A stretch of DNA of 64,000 bases from Candidatus Latescibacterota bacterium. Its GTDB lineage: Bacteria; Latescibacterota; UBA2968. Of the stretch, positions 22,315 to 47,631 are shown piece after piece (the first letter of the stretch is position 1; each line of letters begins with the position of its first letter). Location: positions 5,728,001 to 5,792,000 of the forward strand of contig OZ242311.1 in NCBI GenBank assembly GCA_965207885.1, read 5' to 3'. A model generated the notes under the pieces. The model worked only from the letters and a program-made list of their open reading frames with translations. It was not told the origin of the DNA and searched no databases. The position numbers and the translations under genes are program-made.

Positions 22315-23286
22315 ATGTTTACACTCGAATTCGCGTATATGCGCCTGCATTTCAAGGCGCGAGAGCATTTGCGCCTGCCACCCTATAAAGGCTCCACATT
22401 TCGCGGGGCTTTTGGCGTGGCATTTAAGCGTGCGGTTTGTATTGTGCAACACGGCGAGTGCGAACGGTGCCTGGTTCGGACCCAGTGCGTGTATCCATAC
22501 ATATTTGACACACCTGTAGATAATGCACAGGGCATCTTCCGCGGGTATAGCGAGGCACCCCATCCCTATCTGATCGAACCCCCACTGGAGACCAAAACCG
22601 ATTACACACCGGGCGACGACTTTGCCATTGGTCTGACCCTGATAGGCCGGGTACTGAATTACATGCCCTATTTCATCTATACATTCCAGCGAATGGGAGA
22701 CACAGGTATTGGACGAGGACGCGGCAAATGCGATCTCATTTCAGGCGAAGCACTGCACGCGGATGGAACCTGGCAGGCGGTGTACGACGGAGCGAGCGAA
22801 GTGTTGCAACAAGATGTACCCCATCTGACCGCGCAAGATCTGATACACAACGAAATAGGATCTCGGATTCGCCTCTCATTTGTAACGCCCACACAACTCA
22901 AAGCAGACCGGATATTGCAGCGCGGATTGGATTTTTCCGTGCTCATACGCGGGCTATTGCGGCGGTATTCGGCATTGGCCGCATTTCACGCAGACGGACC
23001 GCCAGATATAAATTATGCCGACTACATCGCGGCGGCAGAGAATATTCAAACCACATCCCACAACTTGACCTGGCGCACATGGCAACGGTATTCAAACCGC
23101 CAGAACCGACGCATGAGCGTGAGTGGTTTTACGGGAGATGTGGTCTTTGAAGGCGACATGACACAATTCCACCCCCTGCTGGCTCTGGGTGTGCCGATGC
23201 ACGTTGGCAAATGGACCAGCTTTGGGATGGGACAATACAAGTTTTATCAATCCACAATCAACCGAATGGATGAACAACATGGGTAA
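22315..23286 (+). CDS. cas6: CRISPR pre-crRNA endoribonuclease Cas6
   Basis: GSTFRGAFG, CxxC region, C-terminal G-loop HVGKWTSFGMG. Confidence 0.9.
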   Translation: MFTLEFAYMRLHFKAREHLRLPPYKGSTFRGAFGVAFKRAVCIVQHGECERCLVRTQCVYPYIFDTPVDNAQGIFRGYSEAPHPYLIEPPLETKTDYTPGDDFAIGLTLIGRVLNYMPYFIYTFQRMGDTGIGRGRGKCDLISGEALHADGTWQAVYDGASEVLQQDVPHLTAQDLIHNEIGSRIRLSFVTPTQLKADRILQRGLDFSVLIRGLLRRYSALAAFHADGPPDINYADYIAAAENIQTTSHNLTWRTWQRYSNRQNRRMSVSGFTGDVVFEGDMTQFHPLLALGVPMHVGKWTSFGMGQYKFYQSTINRMDEQHG

Positions 23287-23629
23287 TCAAGCCAATCAAG
23301 GGTACGATAAATATTATTCTGAAGACAGCTTCTGGAAGAAGTTGCTCAACTTTGCACGCACCGCGGGCCGGGAAGTCGTCGAGAATGCTCTGTCGCTCTA
23401 CTACACTGCCCAGGCACCTGACACACCAACCTGGGCCAAAACGGTCATCACCGGGGCACTGGGGTACTTTATTCTTCCGGCCGATGCAATTCCCGACCTG
23501 ATTCCTGCTGTCGGTTACGGCGATGATCTGGGTGCGCTGGTCGCGGCACTTGCAGCCGTGGCGGCTCATGTGACACCTGAGATCAAAGCCCGCGCAAAAG
23601 AAAAAGCAGCCGAGTGGTTTGGTGAATAA
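23279..23629 (+). CDS. YkvA/DUF1232 family membrane protein
   Basis: ALGYFILPADAIPDLIPAVGYGDD signature. Confidence 0.85.
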   Translation: MGNQANQGYDKYYSEDSFWKKLLNFARTAGREVVENALSLYYTAQAPDTPTWAKTVITGALGYFILPADAIPDLIPAVGYGDDLGALVAALAAVAAHVTPEIKARAKEKAAEWFGE

Positions 23630-23648
23630 ATGGTATAGGAGATGTATC

Positions 23649-24788
23649 ATGCGCTTTGTTCTATCAACCATTGGTACAAGCATCTTGACAAATTTCATCG
23701 ATAAAACAAATTTTGGTGAAGCTAAATGGCAGGGTATGCTACGGGATTCGGCGAATCTCAAACCAGATGAATTATCGCATGAAACTACAGAAGTGATTGA
23801 AACACTCGTTGACCGGGCATTGACGCAACTCCTAAGAGATGATGTAGCTACCAATCGCCGGATTAGTGCCGAATTGAACGGTATCTATGGTATTTATGAA
23901 GGTCAATTGCCTCATAACAGTCGAGACCAGCACTATCTCATCTGCACTGACACTGCCCAGGGACAGAAGACGGGCAAACTGATTCAGGATTTTCTTGAAA
24001 ATAAAGGGTTTGTCGCAGGTATTGTTACGCCTGATAGACTTTCAACACAAGGCCCGGAATCTTTCACCACAGGTACAAAAGACCTTATCCGCTGGCTGGA
24101 GGAAAACGTGCCGTGGCGACGCGATGTGGGCTATCGCGTAATCTTCAATCTCGTTGGTGGCTTCAAAAGCCTACAAGGTTATATGAATACTTTCGGTGCT
24201 TTTTACGCCGATGAGGTCATTTATATATTTGAGGCACCAACTGCTGACTTAATCAAAATTCCGCGTCTGCCAATTCAGATTGATACAACCGTGATTCAAA
24301 ACCATCGGGTGCAATTTGCGATGATGGATGCTGAAAAACTGTATCCTGTTGAGGAACTCGAGGGGATTCCAGAAACACTGCTTGAATTTATAGAAGAGAA
24401 AGGCCAGACTTATGCGGGATTATCGGCGTGGGGCCAGTTGATCTGGAACCTCACGAAATCGGATTTATTGACAAAAAAACTATTGCATTTTCCACGATTG
24501 GGATATGGAAAAACTTTCAGGGATGACTTCGACAATCAGAATGATTCCAGGAAACGTCTTAAACTGCAAGAAACCCTGGCAAGGGTCTCATATCTACTTG
24601 AACAGAACAATGGCAACCGGGCACTGCTTATGCGAGATGGTGGACTGCAATTTGAAAAATTTACCAATAGAGAGAGTATTTACAAATTCCGCATTGATCG
24701 CACTATCCGCGTCAGTTGCTCGGTTTCTGAAGGTGGATTGATCCTTCGGCACTATGGACATAAAAATGTCGTGTACGAAAATCCATAA
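23649..24788 (+). CDS. CARF (APE2256-like) + RelE-like effector, Cami1-like mRNA interferase
   Basis: STIGTS, SAELNG, TDT..G and NLVGGFKS CARF motifs; C-terminal YKFRIDRTIRV...RHYGH resembles RelE. Confidence 0.7.
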   Translation: MRFVLSTIGTSILTNFIDKTNFGEAKWQGMLRDSANLKPDELSHETTEVIETLVDRALTQLLRDDVATNRRISAELNGIYGIYEGQLPHNSRDQHYLICTDTAQGQKTGKLIQDFLENKGFVAGIVTPDRLSTQGPESFTTGTKDLIRWLEENVPWRRDVGYRVIFNLVGGFKSLQGYMNTFGAFYADEVIYIFEAPTADLIKIPRLPIQIDTTVIQNHRVQFAMMDAEKLYPVEELEGIPETLLEFIEEKGQTYAGLSAWGQLIWNLTKSDLLTKKLLHFPRLGYGKTFRDDFDNQNDSRKRLKLQETLARVSYLLEQNNGNRALLMRDGGLQFEKFTNRESIYKFRIDRTIRVSCSVSEGGLILRHYGHKNVVYENP

Positions 24789-24863
24789 AAAGGATAGAAA
24801 GACAATGGATTACCTACACATTATCATATTCTTATCGCTATATACAAAGGAGGTCTTCGCATC

Positions 24864-26483
24864 ATGGCCTGCGAATCGTTTGTCATCGTAATTGATACCC
24901 CTTCTATCAAGAGGTATGTATTTGGAACCGACCCCTTAAATGAGATACGAGGTGCGAGCGCACGTTTAGATTGGCTAAATCGAATCAAAATGGAAGAACT
25001 TTTGTGTGAACACCTCAGTAAGGCAGATGTAAAATCGATTTACGCCAATGGTGGTTCGGCACAGTTTTTAGTTCATGAGAGTGACAACCTCACTGTGAAT
25101 ATGGCCTGTACAAATATGGTTCGGTATATCCGCAATCAAACGGGTGGCGAAGTCCGGGCAGTTTATGGTATCGCACCGCTCAAAGACGAAGCTTCCTATC
25201 AAGAGGCGGTGCATAGGGCACATTTTCAGTTGCGCTGTCAACGCGAATTTGGGACCAGCTACCGCAGTGCGTCTTTAATACCGACCATGATGGAATGTCA
25301 ATCAGCCTCGCATCTGCCCGCGGCTCATATTGTGAATCGAGGCGCAGATGGTATAGGCATGTTATCTAAGGCGAGTTACCAAAAGGAACTGCGGGGGCAT
25401 GAAGCCCGCCGTCATGGACTCTGGGACGGATGGATGGATCACTTGAAAACCACGGGACCGTGGCCAGGAGAGGAGCAGTGGAATAAACTGCGGTGTAAGA
25501 GCATGACAGATATAGGTGACCACTCGTCATGGCGCAACTACATTGGCGTGGTTTATGCCGATGGAAATGCCATGGGACAAATTGTCCAAGCACTCAATCA
25601 TCCAGAGACATTCCGCCAATTTAGCGAAATTGTTGATAATAGCATTCGACAATCATGTTTCACCGCACTCAGCCAAATTTTCCAGACTGAAATCGAAAAC
25701 ATTCGGGAGGCTTTTGAACAAAACCGCCGCTTTGAACACCTTGCCGCCGATATTCTGCTCTTGGGAGGAGATGATTTGCTGGTGGCCGTACCAGCTAACT
25801 CTGCACTCGATTTCGCCTTGAAGGTCACAGAAGAATTTGAACGCTTGACACAAGAGAAAATTGCTGCCCTGAAAGACGCAGAATCTCGGCAGTTCTTCCG
25901 CGACCGACTTGGGGATCGGGGTTTCACAATTTCTTGCGGTGTTGCCATAGCAAAAAGCAACTATCCCTTTTACCTGTCATTGGATCTGGCCGAGCAATTG
26001 TTGAAAAATGCCAAACGGAAAGACAGCTATGGGGCACAACTCGAAACACCCGGTGAAGCTCGCATTGACTTTCATGTTGTGACTGGTGCGAATAGCCATG
26101 CCCTCAAAGAGGTTCGTGAAGAAACCTATCAGATAGCAAGCAATGCACGCCGCACGCTCAGACCCTTGTCTTGCCCCCAGTTGGAATTACTGCACAACAG
26201 TGTACAGAAACTACGCAACGTGAAATTTCCACATAGCAAATTGCACGAACTTCGAGAAGCAGCACTGGCAAAAACGGAGAATCAAGCCGACTGGCGCATT
26301 CGCGACATTTTCGTCCGGTGTCGGCATGATCGAAATAGCTCTGAACGTCGTGCATTGTGGCAAGCGGTGCATAACCTGTGCCCCCAGGGATATACGTTTG
26401 ATTTTCCCTGGTTCATAAAAAATGGCCAACGCCTTCTGTGTGTAGCGGACATAGTGGATATTTACAACTTATTCCGAAAATAG
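24864..26483 (+). CDS. cas10: Cas10, short HD-less form with intact cyclase motif
   Basis: IDTPSIKRYVF...IRGAS, YADGNAMG, LGGDDL, AEQLLKNAK. Confidence 0.9.
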   Translation: MACESFVIVIDTPSIKRYVFGTDPLNEIRGASARLDWLNRIKMEELLCEHLSKADVKSIYANGGSAQFLVHESDNLTVNMACTNMVRYIRNQTGGEVRAVYGIAPLKDEASYQEAVHRAHFQLRCQREFGTSYRSASLIPTMMECQSASHLPAAHIVNRGADGIGMLSKASYQKELRGHEARRHGLWDGWMDHLKTTGPWPGEEQWNKLRCKSMTDIGDHSSWRNYIGVVYADGNAMGQIVQALNHPETFRQFSEIVDNSIRQSCFTALSQIFQTEIENIREAFEQNRRFEHLAADILLLGGDDLLVAVPANSALDFALKVTEEFERLTQEKIAALKDAESRQFFRDRLGDRGFTISCGVAIAKSNYPFYLSLDLAEQLLKNAKRKDSYGAQLETPGEARIDFHVVTGANSHALKEVREETYQIASNARRTLRPLSCPQLELLHNSVQKLRNVKFPHSKLHELREAALAKTENQADWRIRDIFVRCRHDRNSSERRALWQAVHNLCPQGYTFDFPWFIKNGQRLLCVADIVDIYNLFRK

Positions 26484-26497
26484 AGAGGAGTTTACCC

Positions 26498-27235
26498 ATG
26501 AAATCCCAACGCCTAAATTTGTGCTACCACATTATTTGGCAAGGACGCTGGCATGTTGGCAGCGGCTATCAGTCGGCAGTGGCGGACCGCTTGTTGCGAC
26601 GACTACCCAATAATGCACCATTTGTTCCTGGCTCTCAGATCAAAGGTGTTCTGCGCCATCAATGCGAGCGGTTGGCACTGGCCCTTGATCTCAAAGTGAT
26701 CAATCCCCATGCTGGCATTGAAGAAGACGAACAAAATCTGATCAAGCATTTTACGCCGTTAAAAAAATCGGACCTGATGGTCGATAGGTTATTTGGCAGT
26801 CGCTATCAGGGAGAGTGCCTATTTGTGACGAATGCGGTGCCGATGTCGTCTGCAGAGAAAAGTATGACTTCCGTACAGGCACGCACAGCCATTGATCGCG
26901 TCACGGGGACTGTGATGGAACAACACTTGTTTACAACTGAATTGACAGAGGGTGATGTCAACTTGCGAGGAAAAATACGCGCACGGCATCCTGCTGGTGT
27001 TCTGACACAAGATGAAGATGGCTTTCCTTGGGAGTATGCCCTTTTGATAGCAACCCTGCTGTCGCTGGATGCTCTCGGCGGCGATAAGAGTCTTGGCCTC
27101 GGGCGGTGTGAGGTCCAAATCGAACCAGAGTCGTTGTATTGGAACGACCAACGCATTTCGTTAGATGAAGCTCTTCAAAGTTTTCAAGAGGAAGACTGGG
27201 GCGAGTGGGTAGATATTTTGCGTGAGGAGTCATGA
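26498..27235 (+). CDS. Cas7-group RAMP (Csm3-like)
   Basis: WHVGSG, PGSQIKGVLR, TAIDR, GGDKSLGLG. Confidence 0.88.
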   Translation: MKSQRLNLCYHIIWQGRWHVGSGYQSAVADRLLRRLPNNAPFVPGSQIKGVLRHQCERLALALDLKVINPHAGIEEDEQNLIKHFTPLKKSDLMVDRLFGSRYQGECLFVTNAVPMSSAEKSMTSVQARTAIDRVTGTVMEQHLFTTELTEGDVNLRGKIRARHPAGVLTQDEDGFPWEYALLIATLLSLDALGGDKSLGLGRCEVQIEPESLYWNDQRISLDEALQSFQEEDWGEWVDILREES

Positions 27236-28482
27236 TGAGAAAAAAAATACCTTTGACAGCACAATTACTTGCGCCAGTAGCTATCAAACGCGATCGACAA
27301 TCCGAACGTTCTGGAGGCGTGCATTCTATGGCTGGTACGATGGTTCGCGGTGCCCTAGCTGCTCTCTATTTACAGCATCATGGAGAAGTAGATGATACCT
27401 TCAATCATTTGTTCTTAGATGAGAATTCATGTCGATTTGGACCATTGGACCCCGGTCCGCGCTGCTTCCCATTAACTACCGCGGAGTGCAAACGGGAAGG
27501 AATAAAACATGCCCTCGTGGACCAACTGTGGTTTCGGATCGCCCAACACTACCTGACTGGCAGTGTGCCAGATAATGCCGAAACGCCCTGGCGTCAATGT
27601 GACATATGTAAAGCCGACTTGAAGAACCTGAACGGCTTTTGGGAAAAAGAAAACGGTCGTCTGCAGGAAAAAAGTAATGAGCGGCAACAGGTCGCCGCCC
27701 ATGTTGGCATTGACCGTCACACCACCACCGCGGCGGAATCAATATTGTACACCCTTGAAGCCTTACAGCCTTCCGGTCAAGAGGAAGACCTGTACGGCTG
27801 GCTCATGGCTGACGACGATGCGCTTACTGCCTTGAAACAACTCTTGCAGAATGAAGATTACCGCATCTCGGTGGGCCACCATCGCACGCGCGGTTACGGA
27901 GATCTGCGCTTACAGTTGGGCAATCCTGTGGAGAAGAATGATTCACAGCCGCGCATAGAAGATTGGGAACAATGGAGCCGCGATCTGATTGCGTTTCTGA
28001 GTTCACCGCCGCTTTCCATTCCCGATCTCGATCCAGATGATTTTTACTTTAGTTTGTCGTTTCCCACTGGCGCAGTGTTTGTGGACCGCTTTCTGTGTTA
28101 TACTCTCGATCCAGCAGACCTGATTTCATGGTTGTCGCCTATGCCTTCTGCAGATGCCGCGTTTCCAATTCAGAATCGTCCGACCCGACAACTCGCATCA
28201 GGGGGCACAATGTGCTGGATCGCTGCCGTAACCCGACATGAGCGTTTGCGCGGCTGGAATGCAGCTCACGGCTTGCCGCGTCAGGATGAATGGGCCGTAG
28301 TACGAGGGTCAGTCTATGTTTACCGCTTTACAGGCACGGCCACAGAACGCGAGACACTCATTGAACAACTTGCAACCTTGTCCGAAGAAGGCGTCGGTCT
28401 GCGGCGCAATGAAGGCTTTGGCATGGTGATCGTGTCCGATGATTTCCATCGCCAATTTTGCAAACAGGAGGTGCAATCGTGA
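27232..28482 (+). CDS. Cas5-group RAMP (Csx10-like)
   Basis: GTMVRGALA, VGIDR, HRTRGYG, GLRRNEGFG. Confidence 0.8.
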   Translation: MMRKKIPLTAQLLAPVAIKRDRQSERSGGVHSMAGTMVRGALAALYLQHHGEVDDTFNHLFLDENSCRFGPLDPGPRCFPLTTAECKREGIKHALVDQLWFRIAQHYLTGSVPDNAETPWRQCDICKADLKNLNGFWEKENGRLQEKSNERQQVAAHVGIDRHTTTAAESILYTLEALQPSGQEEDLYGWLMADDDALTALKQLLQNEDYRISVGHHRTRGYGDLRLQLGNPVEKNDSQPRIEDWEQWSRDLIAFLSSPPLSIPDLDPDDFYFSLSFPTGAVFVDRFLCYTLDPADLISWLSPMPSADAAFPIQNRPTRQLASGGTMCWIAAVTRHERLRGWNAAHGLPRQDEWAVVRGSVYVYRFTGTATERETLIEQLATLSEEGVGLRRNEGFGMVIVSDDFHRQFCKQEVQS

Positions 28483-28904
28483 TCGTCTTGAACACCGGTT
28501 TGATCCAAAAAGTTGATCTCTACATTGACGAGAACCATAAAACATTTTCAGAACTGGGAGATCGTTTCTTTGACGTATTTAGCTATGACAAACGGAATGA
28601 TCGCATTAATACGCAAATCCGGAATCTGCAACAAATTACCTGCTCCGCTACGCGCTTTGCGGATATCGAAGATTTTGTAAAAAACCAAATGGGAAAAGAA
28701 GAAACTAAAGACCCCAAATGGAAGAAAGTGGGAGACAGCACCTTAAAAAAATTAAAGGAGTTGCGCGACAAAAGCCAGGAATTTGATTCCGATCCCGCTA
28801 ACCAGATGGCACTGCGTCTCCGTCTCGCTCGTGGTTGGGTGCGTGCCGTAGTCAGTCAGTATCTCTATCGCGTTGCATGCGATCAAATGGGAGAGAGGCC
28901 ATGA
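28479..28904 (+). CDS. small helical subunit (Cas11/Csm2-like)
   Basis: Size, position, TQIRNL...FVKNQMGK pattern. Confidence 0.55.
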   Translation: MIVLNTGLIQKVDLYIDENHKTFSELGDRFFDVFSYDKRNDRINTQIRNLQQITCSATRFADIEDFVKNQMGKEETKDPKWKKVGDSTLKKLKELRDKSQEFDSDPANQMALRLRLARGWVRAVVSQYLYRVACDQMGERP

Positions 28905-29422
28905 CATGCGTTGATTTACTATCTGATACCACCTACTGTGAACAGGCTGTTCAACAACTGGATCGACTATTGGGTGACATGAATCAATTCCCCGTAAAGC
29001 GCACGCAGATCTACGGCCTGCGACAAATCGCCCAGCAACAGCCCAGAGAAATTCAAGGATTTGCCAATCATCAGCGCGAGCGTGCCCAGCGCAAGCAGGA
29101 AAACGCCTCCGAAAACACCAAACCGAGATACCAGCCTGAAATCGATTTCTGGGCTCTGGTGGCCGATTTGTGCAGCAATTCGAGTTCTAATTGGTCTGTG
29201 GAAGAGGAAGGACACACCCATCTTCCTGAAGAACTACAAAATATTCCGGCAAGGCGGAAAGGCATGTCACATGAGGAACAACGGTATTTAAACGAACTCA
29301 AGAGGCATCGAAGGGAATTACTCGAACAATGGACAAACGAGCATATTCCAGCGTTTTTTGAACGGTTTTGTACACACGCTTTATACCGCTTGGGAAAGCA
29401 AAAAAACTCGAAAAAGGAGTAA
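28901..29422 (+). CDS. second small helical protein (Cas11-like or ancillary)
   Basis: Overlapping stop/start within the operon; RTQIYGL...FANHQRER pattern. Confidence 0.5.
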   Translation: MTCVDLLSDTTYCEQAVQQLDRLLGDMNQFPVKRTQIYGLRQIAQQQPREIQGFANHQRERAQRKQENASENTKPRYQPEIDFWALVADLCSNSSSNWSVEEEGHTHLPEELQNIPARRKGMSHEEQRYLNELKRHRRELLEQWTNEHIPAFFERFCTHALYRLGKQKNSKKE

Positions 29423-29425
29423 AAC

Positions 29426-30277
29426 ATGACGAATGACGATGCATTGGCTGCCAGTTTTGGATTGAGACAAAAGATCCGACTTACTGCATCTCTTGTGTTT
29501 GATACTGCATGGCGCATTGGATCTGGTAAAGAGGGCGAAACCATGAGTGATTTGGGTGTGGTGCTTGATCCTATAGGTCAACCGGTGCTTCCAGGTTCCT
29601 CTCTCAAGGGAAAATTGCGAAGCACCTGTGAAACTCTGTCACATGCGCTTGGGTTGAGAGCCTGCATGTTGAATCACAACGCAAGCGGTGTCAAATGCAC
29701 AAGTGATGTGAACTATTATCGCACTGTTCGTGAAACATATCAGGAAGCATTGCAAAAGGGGTTACAGGATCGCCTGCAATGGATTGAAGAGAACACCTGC
29801 GACGTGTGTAAATTATTCGGATCACCAATGCAGGCAAGCCGGCTTTGTATAAGCGATGGCCTGCTTAAAGAATGGGCCTCTATTGTGCAAGTACGCGATG
29901 GCGTCGTGATTGACCGCGATAGCCAGACAGCTGTCAATGGTCTTAAATACGACTATGAAGTTGTTCCGCCCGGTAGCCGATTTAAAATTTGTATTGATCT
30001 CGAAAACCCAACTGACCAGGATGTGGCCTTACTCGGTGCCGCTTTATTTGAATGGCACTCTGGTAGCAGTATTGGAGGTTTTACAAGCCGTGGACTTGGA
30101 CGCTTTCATCTGGAGGATATTCAGCTTGTCGGTGTTGACATGGCCGACAGTGAGCAACGCATGAAGTTCCTGACCGGGAAAAAGGCTAAAGATCGTCTTT
30201 CTGATTGGGACAGTTGGGATATCTACTTCACCAGGTACATCAAACAGCAATTAGAACCTGATACTCAGGAGGATTAA
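29426..30277 (+). CDS. Cas7-group RAMP (Csx7-like)
   Basis: RIGSG, PGSSLKGKLRS, CDVCKLFGS, RDGVVIDR, GGFTSRGLG. Confidence 0.88.
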   Translation: MTNDDALAASFGLRQKIRLTASLVFDTAWRIGSGKEGETMSDLGVVLDPIGQPVLPGSSLKGKLRSTCETLSHALGLRACMLNHNASGVKCTSDVNYYRTVRETYQEALQKGLQDRLQWIEENTCDVCKLFGSPMQASRLCISDGLLKEWASIVQVRDGVVIDRDSQTAVNGLKYDYEVVPPGSRFKICIDLENPTDQDVALLGAALFEWHSGSSIGGFTSRGLGRFHLEDIQLVGVDMADSEQRMKFLTGKKAKDRLSDWDSWDIYFTRYIKQQLEPDTQED

Positions 30278-30279
30278 CC

Positions 30280-31236
30280 ATGTTGCGGAAATGGCTTTGT
30301 CAAGCCGATGTAAAAATTGCCATCGAACCGGTTGATCCGGTGTTGATTAAGAGCGGCTATGCTACCAGAGATGGTGCAGATATGGTGCCAGTATCAACAT
30401 TTAGAAATGAGGAGAGAATCTATTACTTTCCAGGAACATCTCTCAAAGGCGTGTTGCGTAGCCATTTGGAGCGAATTGCCCGTACCTTGCAGCAAGGTAG
30501 TGTGTGTATTCCCTACTATCGAAATAACAGCACCCCAATACCTGTTGCAGCGGAACAGCACGCCCATGGCTGCGGATTTCGTTCACGAGGTGGAAGGAAT
30601 GGAGAGGCTACATCGGCCAGGTACGCGGATTCGTGCGCCATATGTCGGTTGTTTGGCTCACTGAAATTTGGCGGACGTTTTAGCGTTGGAGATGCCTACC
30701 CCTTGCCGGACCATAAACCCACTTTAGAATCGCGCAACGGAGTGGGTATTGACCGTTTTACAGGTGGATCGGTATCAGGTGCTTTGTTTGACCTGCAAGT
30801 TCTGGTCGGCGGTAAATTTGAAGCAAATCTACGGTTGACAAATTTTGAACTCTGGCAATTGACCGCTCTCAATCTATTGCTTGCCGATCTACAAGATGAG
30901 ATGATTACCATAGGTTCGGGACGAAGTAGAGGTCTCGGGCGCGTGCGCGGCACTGTCACTTCGTATTCTTTAACCTATGTACAGGAGGAAAGTCATCTCG
31001 AAGGTTTATATCAACTCGCAACCTCGGAGGAGCAGCAAGCCTACCGGTTGCACGACTGGAAGCCCGATAGTCCGATTGAGCTATCAACGCCTGAGTCGCA
31101 TGGTTTGCGGCAGGAATACGATCTGAGTTCCGATTGGCTCCAGCATTTGCAACCGCTCGTTCCAGCCTTTGAGGCATTTTTGCGGTGGCACGGCGGACCT
31201 CAAGGGCAGATATCCCAACAAGGGGATAGGTCATGA
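30280..31236 (+). CDS. Cas7-group RAMP
   Basis: PGTSLKGVLRS, CAICRLFGS, RNGVGIDRFTG, GSGRSRGLG. Confidence 0.88.
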   Translation: MLRKWLCQADVKIAIEPVDPVLIKSGYATRDGADMVPVSTFRNEERIYYFPGTSLKGVLRSHLERIARTLQQGSVCIPYYRNNSTPIPVAAEQHAHGCGFRSRGGRNGEATSARYADSCAICRLFGSLKFGGRFSVGDAYPLPDHKPTLESRNGVGIDRFTGGSVSGALFDLQVLVGGKFEANLRLTNFELWQLTALNLLLADLQDEMITIGSGRSRGLGRVRGTVTSYSLTYVQEESHLEGLYQLATSEEQQAYRLHDWKPDSPIELSTPESHGLRQEYDLSSDWLQHLQPLVPAFEAFLRWHGGPQGQISQQGDRS

Positions 31237-31826
31237 CTACCTTCTTAAAAACGGCGGATTTGACACCAGATCAGTTTCTCGATCTGATTACCAATCTCGA
31301 CCACGATGACACACCCCAGCAACGGATCTGGCTGGAAACACCTGATGGTTGGGCCTTCAATTGGTGGTGCGGCCTGGCTGGCGACCTCTCTTGGTGTGGT
31401 GCAGGCCGCGAGCCGGTTGAAAAATCTGCCCGTGATTGTCTGACCCGATCTACCTCCGGGCGATTGTTTGCGCCTGACGGTGAACTGCGCTGGCGCGTTA
31501 TTCCCTCTCTGGGGGAATCGTGCTGGCGTACCGTTTTCCTCGGTAACGCCGATTGGGTGGGTACTGCATTAAACGACTACTCAGATAAACTACATGATCT
31601 GCATCCACATCAGGACAGCTTTTTTTTGTGGGGCCAGCAAACCGATGAGACACCGAATGAGTGGATTGAACTACGTATTCCACATCGCTTCAATTATCCG
31701 ATTAGCGATAACCCTCGCAGCGTGAGCGTTGTTGTTGAGCAGTGGAGCGACGATGCCGGTGAGCCTCACTTTGTCCGATTGTGTGATCTCAAACCCTATC
31801 AGGAGAACAGTGATGCCGCAAGGTGA
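31233..31826 (+). CDS. Csx19-like type III-D subunit
   Basis: GRLFAPDGELRWR, LWG, ELRIP, C-terminal VRL; typical position before the last Cas7. Confidence 0.65.
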   Translation: MTTFLKTADLTPDQFLDLITNLDHDDTPQQRIWLETPDGWAFNWWCGLAGDLSWCGAGREPVEKSARDCLTRSTSGRLFAPDGELRWRVIPSLGESCWRTVFLGNADWVGTALNDYSDKLHDLHPHQDSFFLWGQQTDETPNEWIELRIPHRFNYPISDNPRSVSVVVEQWSDDAGEPHFVRLCDLKPYQENSDAAR

Positions 31827-32916
31827 AAATTTCTGGAATCCTTATCGCTGGGTTACCATCAGCGATCAACCCGTCGAATACGACGACCTACCTTATCAAC
31901 ATGTAGTGAACGACCTTTCCGGCCGTATCTGGTGCGAACTTGAAGCCCTGACGCCATTCATCGTCGGTGACGGACATGGAATGTTTGTCAAGCATTCCCA
32001 TACTTTCAGTCCATATATTCCGGCCACTTCGCTTAAGGGTGCAATACGTTCTCTCGCAGAAATCGTCGGAAATGCGGCTGTGCCGTTTCCAAATGTTTCG
32101 GTTGATAGCCAACACGCATTGACACGAGCACGCACCAACAAGGGAGGGCGCTCGCAGGTTGACACTGTAGCCAGAACATTTGGCTATTTGCACGGTGGTA
32201 ATGTCTTCGCTGGCTTGATACGCTTTAGTGACGCAGAAATCACTAAAGAACCGCTACCGCCAAACCAATGGCCACAGTACGATGTCGCTGTTGGTCAGCC
32301 CAAGCAGAGCCATACTGCGTTTTATCCTGGAAATAATCAACGCAAATTCTATCACCACCGCCCCGGTGCCACACAGCTTACCGCACCACACGCTGGCATT
32401 ACACAAACGAGTAGCGTACAACCTGCACCTCCCGGCACACGCTTTAACTTTACGGTGAACTTTGCAAATCTACGTAGCTCTGAACTCAACTTGCTACTCT
32501 ACTGTCTGATGCTCGAAGAACAGGTCACTGTCACGCTAAGTCCAGCGGCACTTGGTCGTGATGAAGCGCAAGGACCTGTCATATTAGAGGGACCCATGCG
32601 CCACAAAATGGGAGGTGCCAAACCTCATGGTGCTGGTTCGGTTCACATTCGTATCACCAGGATGGAGTTGCGTACAGATGCGATGGCACGCTACCGGGGT
32701 AACGATTCTATTGAAACCTATAAAGCAGAAGATCTTACAAATGAATTCGAAAATCGTACCGCATCATTTCGGAATCGCACCGATCAAACGATGCAAGAAT
32801 TACGCGCCATGTTGATCTATTCTCTCGAGGATCCCAGACAGCCGATACATTATCCGACCTATGGATGGTTTCGAAATGGGAACAATGCAGGCACGCAGTT
32901 AAAGCCTACAATATAG
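31813..32916 (+). CDS. Cas7-group RAMP of the type III-D terminal (NPY-start) class
   Basis: FWNPY, IPATSLKGAIRS, RKFY, NL...EL..LL, KMGGAKPHGAGSV. Confidence 0.82.
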   Translation: MPQGENFWNPYRWVTISDQPVEYDDLPYQHVVNDLSGRIWCELEALTPFIVGDGHGMFVKHSHTFSPYIPATSLKGAIRSLAEIVGNAAVPFPNVSVDSQHALTRARTNKGGRSQVDTVARTFGYLHGGNVFAGLIRFSDAEITKEPLPPNQWPQYDVAVGQPKQSHTAFYPGNNQRKFYHHRPGATQLTAPHAGITQTSSVQPAPPGTRFNFTVNFANLRSSELNLLLYCLMLEEQVTVTLSPAALGRDEAQGPVILEGPMRHKMGGAKPHGAGSVHIRITRMELRTDAMARYRGNDSIETYKAEDLTNEFENRTASFRNRTDQTMQELRAMLIYSLEDPRQPIHYPTYGWFRNGNNAGTQLKPTI

Positions 32917-33015
32917 CGGCAGGAATTACTCTTGAAAACAGCCCCAAACCAGTAGGGTGACCCGTGTCATCCCTTGATGATAGACGGCGGAATTGGTTTA
33001 TAGAAAGGTAAGCAT

Positions 33016-34287
33016 ATGAAACTGGCGATGTTAGTGACTGTAGGCGTAGGCAGTACTGTTTCAGATGGGATCGTATTCGCTATTCGGCACAGGCGGCCAG
33101 ATTTTGTGATGTTTCTGACTACGTTGCAAAGTGAAGAACTCACCATTCCCAATCTTCTTGAAACACTCAAGTTAGATCCCGAAGCATATCAATGTCGCCG
33201 TGTAGATGACGAAAATGACGTTGAAAAATGTACGTTGGATTTCATCTCGGTGATCCAAAATCTGAAAAACCGGGGATTTGATTCGGAAGACATTGTAGCG
33301 GATTACACATCGGGTACAAAGGCAATGTCGGCAGGACTTGTGGCCGCTGGTCTTGAGGCCGCCCTTGGAGAACTATCTTATATTGCTGGAGAACGCGATG
33401 AGGGCCGTGTTGTCTCGGGAACGGAACGCGCTATATCGCTTGCACCAAACCGATTGAGAGTACGCCGCATTGTAGAACAGGCCATAACGGAGTTCAACTC
33501 CGTTCGGTTTGATACCTGTCTGGACATGCTGAACCAGATCAAAGAATTGATTCGCCTGCAGAGTGTCAGGCAAGCTGTTAATACATTGCAGGCTCTTGCA
33601 TTGGGATACCGCGCCTGGGATCAATTCGATTACACATTGGCCATGTCCGAACTGGATGGACTGACAGGCAATGCACATCTATCCGAATGGGGATTAAAAA
33701 GAAGGCTGGAACGGCACAAAGGTTTTTTATACCGCGTCAAAAATTTCGATTATGGCGTAGAGCGTGCTACAGACTTGTGGAATAGCGCAGAAAGACGCAA
33801 AGCGGAAGGACGTTTTGATGATGCCGTAGCCCGGCTCTATCGGCTAATTGAATATATCGCACAGGTGCGGCTGTTCCGCAATCACAATGGACTAAAAACA
33901 AGTGATCTGGATATAAGCTTGTTGCCCGAATCCCTGCGTGCTTCGTACAAAGAAAAAGCTGGACGATCTGGAAAAATTGAACTCGGGTTATATGAGAGCT
34001 ATGCGTTGTTAAAAGCTCTCGACAATGATCTGGGCCAGTTCTTCATAGCCAAGTATGATGAAACAGAAGAATTAAAAAAAGTATTAGGGCTGCGAAATCA
34101 GTCGATTCTTGCACACGTATTTGGACCTCTATCTCAAAATGGATGTAAAACGGCCCAGTCTTCTGTACGGTCATTGATGGATCAGGCATTCCGGAACTGG
34201 GAAGACACTGCTCGTGAATCTGCTTTTCCAAAACTGAACACATCTCAAGTGATCCCAAGTCTGAATTTATCAAATGGGTTCGGATAA
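33016..34287 (+). CDS. TIGR02710-like CARF + HEPN-like effector
   Basis: VTVG, DYTSGTKAMSAGL, AVARLYRLIE, RNQSILAH. Confidence 0.8.
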   Translation: MKLAMLVTVGVGSTVSDGIVFAIRHRRPDFVMFLTTLQSEELTIPNLLETLKLDPEAYQCRRVDDENDVEKCTLDFISVIQNLKNRGFDSEDIVADYTSGTKAMSAGLVAAGLEAALGELSYIAGERDEGRVVSGTERAISLAPNRLRVRRIVEQAITEFNSVRFDTCLDMLNQIKELIRLQSVRQAVNTLQALALGYRAWDQFDYTLAMSELDGLTGNAHLSEWGLKRRLERHKGFLYRVKNFDYGVERATDLWNSAERRKAEGRFDDAVARLYRLIEYIAQVRLFRNHNGLKTSDLDISLLPESLRASYKEKAGRSGKIELGLYESYALLKALDNDLGQFFIAKYDETEELKKVLGLRNQSILAHVFGPLSQNGCKTAQSSVRSLMDQAFRNWEDTARESAFPKLNTSQVIPSLNLSNGFG

Positions 34288-34339: not shown

Positions 34340-36501
34340 GACTGGATAGAGGGAGGTTAAAAGAGACTTCATAGTTTAATTCAAGCCAGTGGATGCGACC
34401 CAGAGACGTTTATCAATGTCATGCTGGCAGTTTGAGCGTGTAGCGAACAACGTGCGTGAGGATTACAGGCATTTCCTCATGTGCTGGTGGGTCGCAAATT
34501 TCTAACCTTTTGCAGGAGTGTGTATTATGAACAGAGCCGTGAATGCAATTTTTCATTTTTGGGAGGATTTTGTATGTCAAAATGGCCTGAGTCGCAAACC
34601 GCCTTGTAATTGCTTGCGAGACAGGAAATAACGCAGACGGTATCAGGAAGAATTACCCGCTTATTGGGGTATTGAAACTTTGGCACTTCGCCAGCACATC
34701 GCTACCATTGCGTTGGGATCAGGAAGAATTACCCGCTTATTGGGGTATTGAAACAAAAAGAGTGGACGGTATTTTGGAACGAATCGGTGCCAGTCAATCA
34801 GGAAGAATTACCCGCTTATTGGGGTATTGAAACTCTGCTATAGCGGTGAAATGAGGGGACGGCAGGGAGGGATATCAGGAAGAATTACCCGCTTATTGGG
34901 GTATTGAAACCGCGTCCAATCAAAAGATCGGACGCCGCAAAATATAGTTAATCAGGAAGAATTACCCGCTTATTGGGGTATTGAAACCTGAGCAGATCGA
35001 TACCAACATACGCGAACTTGAAGGCGCATCAGGAAGAATTACCCGCTTATTGGGGTATTGAAACTTGGACGAGCCTGTTTTGGCTCCAAATGTTACCACC
35101 ATCAGGAAGAATTACCCGCTTATTGGGGTATTGAAACCGGTTGATCTCGTAGATGAGGTTGGTAAGTTCTACCCAATCAGGAAGAATTACCCGCTTATTG
35201 GGGTATTGAAACGTGAAAATTAACTGCCGTTTCTGCTTTCGCTTTTTCAAGACAATCAGGAAGAATTACCCGCTTATTGGGGTATTGAAACCTGGGTATG
35301 CACATCCGACCAGATGATCGGCACTGGGCCTGATCAGGAAGAATTACCCGCTTATTGGGGTATTGAAACTTGCCGCTGCCGTCGGGGTCAATCGCGTTCA
35401 GGGCGATCAGGAAGAATTACCCGCTTATTGGGGTATTGAAACGGTTGCTGCCTGTCCCAGAATCGCCTGGATTGCCGTGCGAATCAGGAAGAATTACCCG
35501 CTTATTGGGGTATTGAAACCAGGTACATGCGCCCGCGCTAAACAAGTTTTCAGCAGATCAGGAAGAATTACCCGCTTATTGGGGTATTGAAACCTGCCTC
35601 GAACTCTGCCATTTTTTCTTCTGAGATTTTTATATCAGGAAGAATTACCCGCTTATTGGGGTATTGAAACTCCTCGTCATCATCCCCAATCCCTGGGGAT
35701 ATTGATGCTATCAGGAAGAATTACCCGCTTATTGGGGTATTGAAACTTTCTCCATCGCCCTGCCACGTAAAATTCGTGTGTTCAAAAATCAGGAAGAATT
35801 ACCCGCTTATTGGGGTATTGAAACTTTTACAGTTTTTGCTACAGCCTGAAATTCTGCCATTATCAGGAAGAATTACCCGCTTATTGGGGTATTGAAACCA
35901 GTCGATGATGGCATAGCGATCCAACGTCGCGGCGTATCAGGAAGAATTACCCGCTTATTGGGGTATTGAAACCTCAATATGATAAATTATGTTGGCCGCA
36001 TCCCAGTATCAGGAAGAATTACCCGCTTATTGGGGTATTGAAACTTGCATAATTGTCCGATCGGGATTTATATTTTTGGATATATCAGGAAGAATTACCC
36101 GCTTATTGGGGTATTGAAACGGTTATCTTTGTGTCTGGTTGATTTTGGCAAATGCTAATCAGGAAGAATTACCCGCTTATTGGGGTATTGAAACTTTTTT
36201 GAGGGCGGGACTTGCTCCGACCGCACAAAGAAATCAGGAAGAATTACCCGCTTATTGGGGTATTGAAACTATCGAAGGATTTGCGCTTAAACATTTCCTT
36301 TCGGGCTTATCAGGAAGAATTACCCGCTTATTGGGGTATTGAAACCGGGGTTGTCTGATTTATGAGGACTGAATTTGTTGTTATCAGGAAGAATTACCCG
36401 CTTATTGGGGTATTGAAACAGATTCTGCTTCTGGGTCATCTTCGAGGTGTTTTTGGGCAATCAGGAAGAATTACCCGCTTATTGGGGTATTGAAACGAGA
36501 A

Positions 36502-38898
36502 GTAGGGTAGGCTGCTGGCGAGTTACCCAAAGGCACTTTTCCATCAGCCCCCCTCCGAACCGGACGTGATAGTTTCCCATCATCCGGCTCTCCAGTAACT
36601 TTCACCGTTTTGAGGTCGGCCCGCCTCGATGGATGTTGATATGACAGCTTTTACAGACGACAAGTGTTTTTCTGCGTCTTGCTGCCATTTTATGTTTCCA
36701 TCTTGGCTTTTTCTTCCTTCCCGGCTTGTCCACATCCGTTAGTTTGCGTATGTGGTGAACTTCTACTTCTTGCCGAGAACCACATAATTCACATTCTGAT
36801 GCCGTTAAGCGTTGTATTAGCTCGCTACGACTCCAGTATGGTTTTATGTCTTTCAGGCCGTCCTTGATTACCGCGTTCTCTGTGTTGCGTATTAAGGGAA
36901 CCCCTCCAAAGTATGCGATTAGGGGCTTTTTACCTTCTCTTTCTACGGTTACTTGTATGCATTTTCGTGGGCCTCTTGGGGTAATTACTTTACCCTTATA
37001 TTTCCTTGCCGTTTTTCTCACTTGCGATTTGTGTTTATTCGCAAGTGTCTTTAGCAGGGACGTTTGTATGACCCATTCCAATTTGCTCAGTCTCCGTATG
37101 TTGTTTGCGAGTTGGTAGTATTGCACAAAGCCTCTATATTCCCTTTGATAGCGGGATATGATGTCAAAGTCGCTGTCCTGTAACAATTGTGGTCGCGCCT
37201 CTGGCTTCCCGTTTCTCATATAGGTATTGCATCTCGCATCACTTACATCTTTGGGGATGTATAAGCCGAGTCTTCCATTAATGGCCCTTTTCTTAATGTA
37301 GCTGTCCATTTGTGTGTTACTGAAATATCCCTTGATTTCGTATCCTAAAAATCTGGCTCTTTCGGTGGTTACGTGGGTTATTAGGGTCTTTTCTTCTGAA
37401 AGTTCGAGCTTCATATCTTGCAGGAATTTCTTTAGAATTGACTTAATTCCCCTTGCTTCCATTTTGGAGCCTACTAATCCTATTAGGAAGTCGTCAGCGT
37501 ATCTTATGTAGTATATTCTTTTGAAATCGGGGTCGTCTTGGAGTGAGCAGGGTATTTTCTGCATCTTCTGTCTATACTCCTTTGCTTCTTCAAATCGACC
37601 TTTCTTTTTCAGGTGATATACTTTGTTAATCAGATACCTGTATTCAGGGTTTTTCTTTCGGCTTTTTCCTTTTGTGAATAGAGATTTGAGGGTGTTTTCA
37701 ACAAATTTATCCAGTCTATCGAGGTAGATATTTGAGAGTATCGGGCTTACGATTCCCCCTTGTGGCGTTCCGCTCAAGGTGGGTGTGTAATTCCAATTCT
37801 CCATATATCCTGCTTTGAGTAGATTGGATATTAACCGCAGAAATCGGTTGTCTCGGATTTTCTCTCGGAGTATTGATAGTAAGATTTGGTGGTCTATATT
37901 ATCGAAGCACCCCTTAATATCTCCTTCGACAAACCATTTCGTTCCGTTCCACTTTTTGACTGCTTGTAATGCCGTGTGACAGCCTTTATTTGGTCGGAAC
38001 CCGTGAGACAAGCTGCTAAATTGCGGTTCATAATACGCTTCTAATATGGAGCGTATTACTTCCTGCACAAGTTTGTCTGTCCACGTAGGAATGCCTAACG
38101 GTCGCATTTTACCGTTTTTCTTTGGTATATGTGTCCGTCTCACTGGAGTCCATCTGAAGCGTTCATAGCGTATTTGTTCTATGATTGCTTTAATTTTCTT
38201 CAGTGACATTCCATCAACGGTTTCTTCCGTTATACCTTTGGTCATTGCGCCTTTGTTGCGTTGAATGCGACTGTAGGCCCGCAGGTATAGATCGGGGTTG
38301 AACATTTGTCGATAAACGTCTTCAATGGGTAATCCTCTTAAACCTCGATTTCGGATGATACCTAATACTGTTTCGGCGTCTCGCATCTCGCGTGCCTCCT
38401 GTATTATTGTATCCAGTTACCTGTTTTCCTTCGCCTTGTGGACGGCTTTCCCGTCCTCTGACTACTATGAAAACTCCGTTACCATAGGACTCGCGTCCCG
38501 TAGGCAATCCCGTGTTTTTCTGTTGTGGTCTGTATTAGTGTGGGTTAGGTAGTCCACTCATTCCTTAAATGAGCTACATTGCTCATCGTTGGCAGTTCCA
38601 AAGGTTATGGGAAAGCATTGGTTAATTTCCCATAAAACTGATACCGGTATCGGACGACTTTCCGGTAGGGCGAAGCGACCGTCCTTCTGGAATTGGACTT
38701 CGGGCAGTTTAGCTCTTACCATACCACACAGGTCTTGCGGAGCAAATGTTTTTGTCGCCTTCTCTACATTCTCCGCTTTACGAATATGCTATTTTCCCTT
38801 TCGCCTTTCGGTTCCGGTTGATTCGTTGACCTATGGACGTTCCTTTGAGTCCATCCTGATTTAGTCAGGAATACCACATCAGACGCTACACGGCGCAC
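36502..38898 (-). mobile_element. group II intron (IIA, Ll.LtrB-like), apparently complete, 2397 bp
   Basis: 5' GTGCG at 38898; domain V GAGCCGGATGATGGGAAACTATCACGTCCGGTTC; domain VI ending CCTACCCTAC at 36502; EBS1 loop at 38616-38621. Confidence 0.93.
36602..38386 (-). CDS. intron-encoded reverse transcriptase/maturase with HNH endonuclease (LtrA-like)
   Basis: RPLGIP, HGFRP, GDIKGCFDNI, GTPQGG, RYADD, FLG; C-terminal CELC...HH...CKSCH. Confidence 0.95.
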   Translation of the reverse strand: MRDAETVLGIIRNRGLRGLPIEDVYRQMFNPDLYLRAYSRIQRNKGAMTKGITEETVDGMSLKKIKAIIEQIRYERFRWTPVRRTHIPKKNGKMRPLGIPTWTDKLVQEVIRSILEAYYEPQFSSLSHGFRPNKGCHTALQAVKKWNGTKWFVEGDIKGCFDNIDHQILLSILREKIRDNRFLRLISNLLKAGYMENWNYTPTLSGTPQGGIVSPILSNIYLDRLDKFVENTLKSLFTKGKSRKKNPEYRYLINKVYHLKKKGRFEEAKEYRQKMQKIPCSLQDDPDFKRIYYIRYADDFLIGLVGSKMEARGIKSILKKFLQDMKLELSEEKTLITHVTTERARFLGYEIKGYFSNTQMDSYIKKRAINGRLGLYIPKDVSDARCNTYMRNGKPEARPQLLQDSDFDIISRYQREYRGFVQYYQLANNIRRLSKLEWVIQTSLLKTLANKHKSQVRKTARKYKGKVITPRGPRKCIQVTVEREGKKPLIAYFGGVPLIRNTENAVIKDGLKDIKPYWSRSELIQRLTASECELCGSRQEVEVHHIRKLTDVDKPGRKKKPRWKHKMAARRRKTLVVCKSCHINIHRGGPTSKR

Positions 38899-39588
38899 CT
38901 AATGAGGCTTTGGGTAGATCGTTCACACCCAATCAGGAAGAATTACCCGCTTATTGGGGTATTGAAACTTCGATGCGGGAGCGACCAGCGGCTTGAATCT
39001 TAACAACTGATCAGGAAGAATTACCCGCTTATTGGGGTATTGAAACTATTGCGAGAGAAGATGTTCGCAGATCGAAAGATCCATCAGGAAGAATTACCCG
39101 CTTATTGGGGTATTGAAACTCGAGCTTGACGATGCGCTCTTCGTGGTTGGCGAGACGATCAGGAAGAATTACCCGCTTATTGGGGTATTGAAACGCGTCA
39201 AGGTCTCTGCGTATCTGGTCGAAATTGTCCTCGGATCAGGAAGAATTACCCGCTTATTGGGGTATTGAAACAAATATACTGCACACCACAAGCAGAGCAT
39301 CTCAAAAGTGCATCAGGAAGAATTACCCGCTTATTGGGGTATTGAAACCCGCGGACAGCGAGCGCAAAATCGTCGCAGTCGCTTCTGATCAGGAAGGATT
39401 ACCCGCTTACTGGGGTATTGAAACAATAGCTTGCGGATACACACAGCAAACTCGTTGTAATCATCAGGAAGGATTACCCGCTTACTGGGGTATTGAAACG
39501 AAACTGTCTTACTTTTTTACTTCGGGAATGATTTTGGGATCAGGAAAGATTACCTGTTTACAAAAAGAAAAAGGAGAGGAAACAAGTG

Positions 39589-43835: not shown

Positions 43836-44173
43836 TCAAGAAAGGATTACCCGACTACTGGGGTATTGAAACTCATCACCGAGACGTTCTTTGGTTGAAT
43901 ACTTCCCTTCGAATCAGGAAAGATTACCCGACTACTGGGGTATTGAAACGTATCTGTCACCATTACGATATAGTTGTTTCCATCGGCAATCAGGAAGGAT
44001 TACCCGCTTACTGGGGTATTGAAACCAGACCTCAGCAGCTTCGTTTGCATCAACGACGATTATCAGGAAGGATTATCCGACTACTGGGGTATTGAAACAT
44101 GTCCGCCTCGCAGAAGTTCATCTCGTTCATCTTCCGAAGATCAGGAAGAAATTACCCGACTACTGGGGTATTT
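43836..44173 (+). CRISPR. second array segment: 5 variant repeats (first and last degenerate), 4 spacers
   Basis: Repeats at about 43836, 43913, 43989, 44062 and 44140; the 43989 copy is identical to main-array repeats 32-33. Confidence 0.9.
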
Positions 44174-44291
44174 ACCATTTTTAGGGTTGTGCTTGTAGTG
44201 TAGCCTCAGATTCTCTATCTTTTGAATAGATCTTAATACAGAATACAGAGGATGTGCGTCCAACCACGATATGCTATGGGAGGAGATGCCA

Positions 44292-44555
44292 ATGAACCAG
44301 CTAACATTAAGCGGATTTGACAAAGAATTGACCGATAGAATCCGGCATTTCGCAAACCAGGAGGGTATTTCGCTAAATCAAGCCGCGTTGAGACTTCTGC
44401 GCGTTGGGGCCGGTCTCAAGCAATCAAAGGATAGCGGCGACACCGTTGGATCTTCCCTGGACCATCTAATTGGAACCTGGACGGTCGAGGAAGCTGAGGT
44501 ATTGAATAATGCCGTAAAAGAATTGGAACAAATTGACGAGTCTATGTGGAAATGA
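44292..44555 (+). CDS. FitA/VapB-like antitoxin
   Basis: MNQLTLSGFD...A..EGISLN RHH pattern; GTW...ID...WK; overlaps the vapC start. Confidence 0.75.
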   Translation: MNQLTLSGFDKELTDRIRHFANQEGISLNQAALRLLRVGAGLKQSKDSGDTVGSSLDHLIGTWTVEEAEVLNNAVKELEQIDESMWK

Positions 44556-44950
44556 AAATTCTCCTTGACACCAATGCGTATTCACATCTGAAGCGAGGGC
44601 ATCGCAGGGTTGCGGCGTTAGTACGCATGTCCGAGGAAATTTTCCTGTCAGCTATTATCATTGGCGAATTGCTCTACGGCTTTCGGCAAGGCTCGCGCAT
44701 TGACCGGAATATTGAGGAACTTAAAGCCTTCCTCAACAACCCCTATGTCACATTTGTACCTATAAGTTTCGCAACAGCCGAACATTACGCGCAGATTGCA
44801 ATGTCGTTGAGAACCAAGGGGCGTCCCATCCCGTCAAACGACATTTGGATCGCTGCTCAAGCAATGGAGACAGGTGCCAATCTCGTTTCGTCTGATCAGC
44901 ATTTTTCAGAAATTGATGGTCTCGCGTGGACATACGTCTCGACTGAATAA
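44552..44950 (+). CDS. vapC: VapC PIN toxin
   Basis: LLDTNAY, GELLYG, GRPIPSNDIWIAA, SSDQHF. Confidence 0.9.
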   Translation: MKILLDTNAYSHLKRGHRRVAALVRMSEEIFLSAIIIGELLYGFRQGSRIDRNIEELKAFLNNPYVTFVPISFATAEHYAQIAMSLRTKGRPIPSNDIWIAAQAMETGANLVSSDQHFSEIDGLAWTYVSTE

Positions 44951-45233: not shown

Positions 45234-45349
45234 ATCAGGAAGGATTACCCGACTACTGGGGTATTGAAACCTTTCGCTTGACTAATAATAATATAATATA
45301 AAACCCTTCCGAATCAGGAAGGATTACCCGACTACTGGGGTATTGAAAC
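45234..45349 (+). CRISPR. mini-array: 2 variant repeats, 1 AT-rich spacer
   Basis: ATCAGGAAGGATTACCCGACTACTGGGGTATTGAAAC at 45234 and 45313. Confidence 0.88.
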
Positions 45350-45360
45350 TGTGCCTGGAT

Positions 45361-47630: not shown

Positions 47631-47631
47631 T

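Follow-up and report, generated by a model that had tools for sequence, protein, structure and literature searches.

A group II intron within a CRISPR spacer

Why would a group II intron sit inside a single spacer of a CRISPR array? The question is raised by a 64,000-nucleotide stretch of DNA from a Candidatus Latescibacterota bacterium (contig OZ242311.1, positions 5,728,001 to 5,792,000), referred to here as the window, in which a type III-D array is split within its spacer 25 by a complete intron carrying an intron-encoded protein (IEP). The answer that we consider very probable is that this LtrA-like intron came from a chromosomal gene encoding a 91-aa protein and retrohomed into a spacer that had stored part of a diverged homologue of this gene. 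The features discussed are collected in Table 1, and coordinates without a prefix refer to the window.

Start-to-start distances of the repeats are 72-79 nt, with the sole exception of 2472 nt between repeats 25 and 26 (36460 to 38932). Subtraction of the 2397-nt intron leaves a spacing of 75 nt, so that the two flanking pieces (5 + 33 nt) rejoin into a 38-nt spacer; spacers of the array are 35-42 nt long. The repeats on both sides of the interrupted spacer are perfect. Altogether 31 copies are perfect 37-nt repeats, two have 2 mismatches each (39388 and 39463), and the last one (39540) is degenerate. On the minus strand the ends of the intron, GTGCG...CTAC, agree with the boundary rule 5' GUGYG / 3' AY. 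Domains V and VI matched the full RF00029 model (1-77) well above its gathering score of 40, and this was the sole Rfam match at the gathering threshold within the window. The match to the Rfam model group-II-D1D4-1 was weak (18.8 bits, gathering score 35). An initial annotation, made from the letters of the window alone, had described an intact group II intron in this spacer with YADD and HNH preserved in its protein, and both the boundaries and the two motifs were recovered.

The domains of the IEP are, in order, RVT_1, Intron_maturas2 and an AI2M-like HNH domain. Its score against TIGR04416, the NCBIfam equivalog for group II reverse transcriptase (RT)/maturase proteins, was 301.3 bits at a cut-off of 300. 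The nearest solved relative is LtrA of the Ll.LtrB intron (434 bits, E 6.4e-129, residues 24-585 aligned with 26-594), compared with 124 bits for the IIB (T.el4h-type) maturase 6me0. About 60% identity was found to proteins borne on cyanobacterial plasmids. Since LtrA is the nearest solved relative, we read the intron as mitochondrial-like, IIA-type and LtrA-like, a tentative class assignment made from protein alignment. The intron itself is an ordinary new LtrA-like member; what is unusual is its insertion site. A third, distant match in the same genome (G000:C1:4083319-4083967, locus L003), with 63% identity over intron nt 562-1210, suggests a further RT or intron gene.

Table 1. Positions of the array, the intron and associated features in the window
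Feature	Position	Strand	Remarks
Type III-D cas genes	22315..34287	+	Cas6, CARF protein, Cas10 (GGDD), RAMPs, Csx10-like, two Csx7-like, Csx19-like, CARF-HEPN (Csm6-like)
CRISPR array	34642..39576 (end approximate)	+	33 repeats of 37 nt, then a degenerate terminal copy at 39540
Spacer 1, leader-proximal	34679..34717	+	matches the RadC-like gene directly upstream of accessory copies in congeners
Repeat 25, perfect	36460..36496	+
Spacer 25 piece, 5 nt	36497..36501	-	3' exon of the intron (+1 to +5)
Group II intron, 2397 nt	36502..38898	-	GTGCG...CTAC; splits spacer 25 between perfect repeats 25 and 26
Intron domains V and VI	36502..36592	-	RF00029, 68.3 bits, E 2.5e-11
IEP, 594 aa	36602..38386	-	RT, maturase (X), HNH; YADD at residue 296
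EBS1 CCAAUG	38616-38621 (intron 278-283)	-	positions 5-10 of an 11-nt loop, hairpin at intron nt 265-294
Delta A	38622	-	A preceding EBS1, same loop
EBS2 core GCUU	38673-38676 (intron 223-226)	-
Spacer 25 piece, 33 nt	38899..38931	-	5' exon of the intron (-33 to -1); IBS1 -6..-1, IBS2 -12..-9
Repeat 26, perfect	38932..38968	+
Cas1	47617-48633	+
Cas2	48651-48932	+

The intron has a second copy in a chromosomal gene

The search for other copies of the intron returned one that is 100% identical over all 2397 nt (G000:C1:3116209-3118605; the genome is one contig of 6,228,721 nt), and its exons were compared with those in the array. This copy splits a chromosomal open reading frame (ORF) of 91 aa after codon 63. 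Homologues of the gene numbered 194 proteins at E <= 0.001, and it was matched in 51 of the 168 genomes of the phylum, including all 20 of the genus. The database homologue P0107 passes at this codon into another intron-like sequence. Furthermore, Logan contigs from three sequencing runs of other studies (X5, X6 and X8) carry the intron with host-gene flanks. Since the gene is conserved, has intron-like sequence at the same codon in P0107 and flanks the intron in these runs, we regard the 91-aa gene as the intron's home and the array as a secondary site.

The 91-aa gene has no family in Pfam or PHROG. The AlphaFold model of its product (mean pLDDT 68.4) consists of four strands followed by a helix. 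A Foldseek search with this model gave no PDB match at E <= 0.001, and the phage T5 PC4-like protein and Pur-alpha surfaced only at E about 1; binding of single-stranded DNA by this protein is therefore no more than a lead. Contigs labelled Woesearchaeota archaeon (L147-L149) also encode relatives, at 40-56% identity, which is a wide and patchy spread for such a small gene. A congener carries a 5'-truncated copy of the same intron at an unrelated site (G079:C1:4426285-4427027, L004). It covers nt 1655-2397 with 93% identity, which rises to 100% in the final 109 nt. The genome has an irregular GC skew, from which replichores could not be assigned.

The intron pairs with both of its sites

Exon-binding sites (EBS) of the intron pair with intron-binding sites (IBS) in the flanking exons. 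EBS1 pairs with the host gene at 6/6 positions (one G-U) and with the 5' exon in the spacer at 5/6. EBS2 pairs at 4/4 positions inside a 6-nt window at both sites, which makes the total 10/12 pairs in the host gene and 9/12 in the spacer. Delta pairs with T at +1 at both sites. The initial annotation had paired AA at delta with TT of the 3' exon. The first of these A-T pairs holds at both sites, while the second (+2) exists in the spacer only and not in the host gene.

The same annotation had placed EBS1 and EBS2 where we found them. Related introns were found in four other genomes of the phylum (G146, G042, G083 and G118). Their 5' ends (GTGCGC) were located, domain I was aligned and a 5 x 6 pairing matrix was calculated. 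Domains V-VI of these introns are 77-83% identical. At the positions of EBS1 and EBS2, every related intron carries sequences that can pair with the 5' exon of its own target. Cognate combinations of EBS and exon gave 9-11/12 pairs in the five introns, compared with 1-7/12 for the non-cognate ones. This covariation across five introns supports the placement of EBS1, EBS2 and delta. The minimum free energy fold, which covered the first 520 nt of the intron, put EBS1 in the 11-nt hairpin loop, and its local helices are backed by covariation, judged by eye, in the 4 relatives. Taken with the exact ends, the normal length of the rejoined spacer, the intact IEP and the identical second copy, the pairing of EBS and delta at both sites bears out the earlier proposal of a genuine reverse-splicing insertion.

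Two of the related introns have features of their own. The intron of G146 (C1, ~2311948-2315898; L012/L025) splits ssb between codons, and its 3' exon matched Pfam SSB at E 8.9e-33. In G042 (C1:5367519-5368200, approximate; L008) there is an ORF-less derivative of the family of ~0.7 kb, in which domains I-III are joined almost directly to V-VI. By eye, the 5' flank of the G083 intron (L009, G083:C1, ~1647133) had resembled a tRNA's 5' half that ends at the anticodon loop, but no tRNA was found in this locus with ARAGORN.

Spacer 25 resembles a diverged homing site

On the intron strand, spacer 25 and the host gene are identical at 24/33 positions upstream and 2/5 downstream of the insertion point, i.e. 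at 26/38. Read in the frame of the host gene, the spacer gives GVNDLPKASLVL, compared with KVNDIPKAVLVL of the host, so the 12 nucleotide differences leave 9/12 residues the same. When 12 differences were placed at random, at least the same residue conservation was reached in 0.047% of 200,000 trials (P = 0.00047). With the EBS-contact positions fixed as observed, the codon test gave P = 0.0016. The three altered residues sit at positions which also vary within the family: Lys is replaced by Gly, Asn, Arg or Asp, Ile by Leu (in three lineages) and Val by Ile, Cys or Thr.

In the whole genome (6.2 Mb, both strands), the 33-nt part of the spacer was the top non-self match to the homing site with 24/33, followed by one site with 23 and 13 sites with 22. 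Pairing with EBS1 (>= 5/6), EBS2 (4/4) and delta is offered by 1,241 other genome sites, all of which lack the intron. Of the remaining 27 positions of the homing site, these compatible sites match 1-15 and the spacer matches 17. Since the 1,241 equally pairing sites are empty and less similar, RNA pairing alone does not explain the choice of site. The extra similarity explains it, and homology is the simplest source of such similarity.

Based on these observations we propose the following order of events. The mobile LtrA-like intron would have been resident in the conserved 91-aa chromosomal gene, and the type III-D array would have acquired its spacer 25 from a diverged homologue, as a 38-nt piece corresponding to positions -33 to +5 of the homing site. 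This piece would most likely stem from an accessory copy of the gene, situated on a phage or integrated element in a recombination module of RadC/Rad52 type that the array also targets. The ribonucleoprotein of the intron would then recognise the stored site by EBS1/IBS1, EBS2/IBS2 and delta/delta' pairing together with protein contacts to the distal 5' exon. Reverse splicing would place the intron in the strand of the fragment that is sense to the gene, and the intron would subsequently be copied into DNA.

A mobile element is the likely source of the spacer

Additional copies of the 91-aa gene were found in five congeners. A RadC-like JAB-domain gene is positioned directly upstream, at 300-550 nt, of all 7 accessory copies, and a gene for a Rad52/Erf-type annealing protein follows the accessory copy in the module. 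In G080 the module is ~4.5 kb from a large serine recombinase gene which itself abuts a tRNA synthetase gene, an arrangement suggestive of an integrated element's edge. Two predicted viral contigs (IMG/VR) also encode relatives of the 91-aa gene, with neighbours annotated for one of them (L092); there the relative comes directly after a RadC-type gene (phrog_10276), near genes for a Cas4-like exonuclease and a sigma factor.

The array targets this module. Spacer 1 matches the island RadC-like gene at 36/36 (G077:C146), 35/36 (G077:C84) and 39/39 positions (G085), antisense to the ORF. The genome studied here lacks the RadC of the island type as well as the annealing protein and the accessory copy. 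Since spacer 1 hits the RadC gene of the module at 100% and the module is absent from the genome, the array demonstrably records, as judged from these matches, the family of elements that bear the RadC module. Spacer 25 is most likely a piece of the neighbouring gene from an unsampled variant of such an element. The initial annotation had suggested that the spacer copies, or mimics, the normal homing site of the intron on a mobile element. The copy of the homing site stands, as a diverged allele in the frame of the gene, while the mobile source goes no further than likely.

Spacer 1 had no match among viral contigs, and the part of the array at 34600-36501 had none among phages. Spacers 3, 4 and 12 (34834-34873, 34911-34950 and 35520-35556) have chromosomal identity runs of 25, 31 and 20 nt, respectively, which then stop abruptly; these half-matching spacers may span integrated-element junctions or strain-specific boundaries.

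Weighing the alternatives

Several observations speak against the proposed history. No exact protospacer of the 33-nt part was found in INPHARED phages, viral contigs, metagenome contigs or genome contigs, nor was one found in the genome studied here. The nearest family allele reaches only 28/38 in surveys of 60 and 133 loci. No surveyed allele encodes the Ser that the spacer has at the Val/Ile position, and in the metagenome scan for alleles the peptide pattern excluded the spacer's own variant by design. One unrelated site of the genome equals the spacer at 26/38, and because of this tie the raw nucleotide identity does not decide the matter by itself. Tolerance of changes at wobble positions may also be a property of an intron whose target is a conserved gene, which would weaken the codon test. 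Finally, there are points about strand (with the array read on the plus strand, spacer 5 has the sense orientation of its gene) and about reads, which are taken up below.

The same retrohoming could have hit a spacer taken from chromosomal DNA, either from a related lineage outside the sample, by way of its core orthologue, or from a paralogue that this lineage has lost. Such a source is possible since spacer 5 (34988-35027) is a 40/40 match to the cell's own dnaA (G000:C1:332556-332595; 83-95% in many relatives), and the partial self-matches of spacers 3, 4 and 12 point the same way. Moreover, in the 60-locus survey core alleles (24-27/38) and accessory alleles (20-26/38) were about equally near to the spacer. 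However, no sampled core allele exceeds 28/38 among the 60 + 133 loci, and the array demonstrably targets the RadC module that bears the accessory copies and is absent from the genome. We regard a chromosomal source as possible, though unlikely. It is very improbable that the intron landed by ectopic retrotransposition in an unrelated spacer, with the similarity produced by chance and by the target preference of the intron. The unrelated site at 26/38 and the 1,241 sites show that such identity and IBS pairing do occur elsewhere. However, spacers make up ~1.3 kb of 6.2 Mb, and we estimate the chance that the top chance site falls in a spacer at the order of 5e-4; the codon pattern has a P of about 5e-4 as well. 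The 17/27 matches outside the EBS contacts exceed the maximum of 15 among the compatible sites, and the differences of the spacer fall at family-variable positions (Lys/Gly/Asn/Arg and Val/Ile/Cys/Thr).

Since the intron is a two-copy repeat of 2.4 kb, it could also have been mis-joined into the array during assembly. Reads speak to this in Logan contigs of run X1, which may be the genome's own source sample. An independent 87-nt contig (38870-38956, 0 differences, depth 58.3) covers the 5' end of the intron, the adjoining spacer piece and repeat 26. Its depth is half that of the intron body (116.9) and close to that of the host-gene junction contig (62.2), which fits two intron copies, each near fixation. 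The array-side 3' junction (36501/36502) was seen in none of the pieces listed for X1, and the depth in bin 36384-36504 was 2.06. Of the two junctions for which the initial annotation had wanted reads, the 5' one is spanned. Nevertheless, a mis-join predicts one array flank and one host-gene flank. Here both flanks are array sequence that rejoins to 38 nt, and the genome is a single 6.2-Mb contig. An assembly artefact is therefore extremely unlikely. The empty spacer was also looked for: no joint skipping 36502-38898 was present in contigs of X1, X5, X6 and X8, which cannot show absence and leave several array bins without cover. In X5, X6 and X8 the intron had host-gene flanks only. Two joints found in read contigs were repeat-to-repeat artefacts that carry other spacers.

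Possible consequences of the insertion for the array

From the strand of the cas genes, the degenerate repeats at the 39.4-39.5 kb end and the 3' end of the repeat, ATTGAAAC, which we take to be the CRISPR RNA (crRNA) tag, we infer that the array is read on the plus strand. The leader is presumed to be on the 34.3-34.6 kb side. Read this way, the spacers give a mixed strand signal with respect to their target genes, antisense for spacers 1 and 25 but sense for spacer 5. Promoter and terminator scans gave weak consensus hits only. On the antisense strand each repeat has a 5-bp hairpin followed by a T-rich run, a feature that the terminator scan reported 31 times, compared with 7.1 hits expected in all.

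If the array is read on the plus strand, the crRNA is antisense to the gene fragment, and consequently the intron is antisense to the precursor crRNA and could not be removed by splicing; this antisense orientation does not figure in the initial annotation. Spacer 25 is probably lost as a guide. Eight older units lie beyond the 2.4-kb insert, which has three weak terminator-like sites.

The insertion might even turn the array against the intron. If Cas6 processed the interrupted unit, the 8-nt tag would be followed in the resulting crRNA by 5 nt of the spacer and the antisense of the last ~32 nt of the intron, and this chimeric crRNA would let the type III-D complex sense or cut intron RNA. 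The computed pairing of such a guide with the unspliced host-gene transcript is 32/32 at positions 6-37, 2/5 at positions 1-5 and 2/8 at the tag. Since the tag pairs at only 2/8 positions, the target would not look like self. We consider this activity rather doubtful. If true, the intron would carry its own brake or the cell would tolerate a form of autoimmunity, and CRISPR memories of elements bearing the homing site would act as intron traps.

Comparison with known systems

The intron resembles Ll.LtrB in the full-length alignment of the IEP with LtrA, in the order of RT, X and HNH domains, and in the use of EBS1, EBS2 and a delta next to EBS1 to read the target. Ll.LtrB likewise homes into a gene of a mobile element. 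It differs in phylum and target gene, and the intron described here has an EBS2 of only 4 bp and one copy in a CRISPR spacer, antisense to the array. The introns of the same phylum (G146 in ssb, the ORF-less one of G042, G083 and G118) share the register of the 11-nt EBS1 loop and the place of EBS2. However, each has its own EBS and target, and among those found there is no case of an insertion into a CRISPR array.

CRISPR arrays split by insertion sequences or transposons are known. As in those cases, a mobile element splits the array and probably disturbs the downstream units. Here, however, a retroelement is involved, with reverse splicing as its mode of insertion, and its insertion point appears to be set by the homing-site content of one spacer and not by the repeats or by chance.

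In RT-Cas1 systems, an RT resembling those of group II introns is either fused with Cas1 or encoded next to it (PMC5513706, PMC4424553). The likeness is an RT of group II intron ancestry inside a type III CRISPR locus. In the window, by contrast, the RT belongs to a complete intron with its ribozyme, lies inside a spacer and has an identical copy elsewhere, and Cas1 has no RT fusion and neighbours a protein with TPR repeats and an archaeo-eukaryotic primase (AEP) domain. In a literature search that covered the open literature, without most subscription journals or supplements, we found no report of a group II intron within a CRISPR spacer.

The locus can be regarded as a natural experiment on target recognition, in which positions -33 to +5 of a homing site, placed between unrelated repeats and differing at 12/38 positions, would have sufficed for insertion, while 1,241 sites with equal pairing remained empty. 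It would also mean that an array, in storing foreign gene fragments, can bring in targets for site-specific mobile elements of the cell itself and suffer damage from these elements. The proposed history connects the intron and its chromosomal host gene with the accessory copy in a recombination module and with the array by which this module is targeted, and it yields testable predictions.

The type III-D locus and neighbouring genes

The cas genes are located 5' of the array on its plus strand. Cas10 is short, with a palm2 domain and GGDD at residue 301. A Cas10 with a cyclase motif, Csx10, Csx19 and Cas7-type RAMPs, by which type III-D is defined, occur together in this locus, although Csx10 (137 vs 177) and Csx19 (23.5 vs 35) each score under the NCBIfam cut-off. 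Csx7 scored 132.8 at a cut-off of 108. Just 5' of the cas genes, at 20325-22031, a fusion of a CARF-like domain (Cas_NE0113), a sigma-54 activator AAA+ domain and a Fis-type helix-turn-helix is encoded, which makes it a candidate signal-responsive transcription factor.

The gene that overlaps the start of Cas1 (45663-47630) encodes the 655-aa protein with TPR repeats and an AEP domain (AEP-TOTE, E 3e-46). This protein is not an RT and is predicted to serve the adaptation module as a primase-polymerase. Two small arrays of a variant of the main array's repeat, with 5 copies at 43836-44182 and 2 copies at 45234-45354, flank a PIN-domain gene at 44546-44950.

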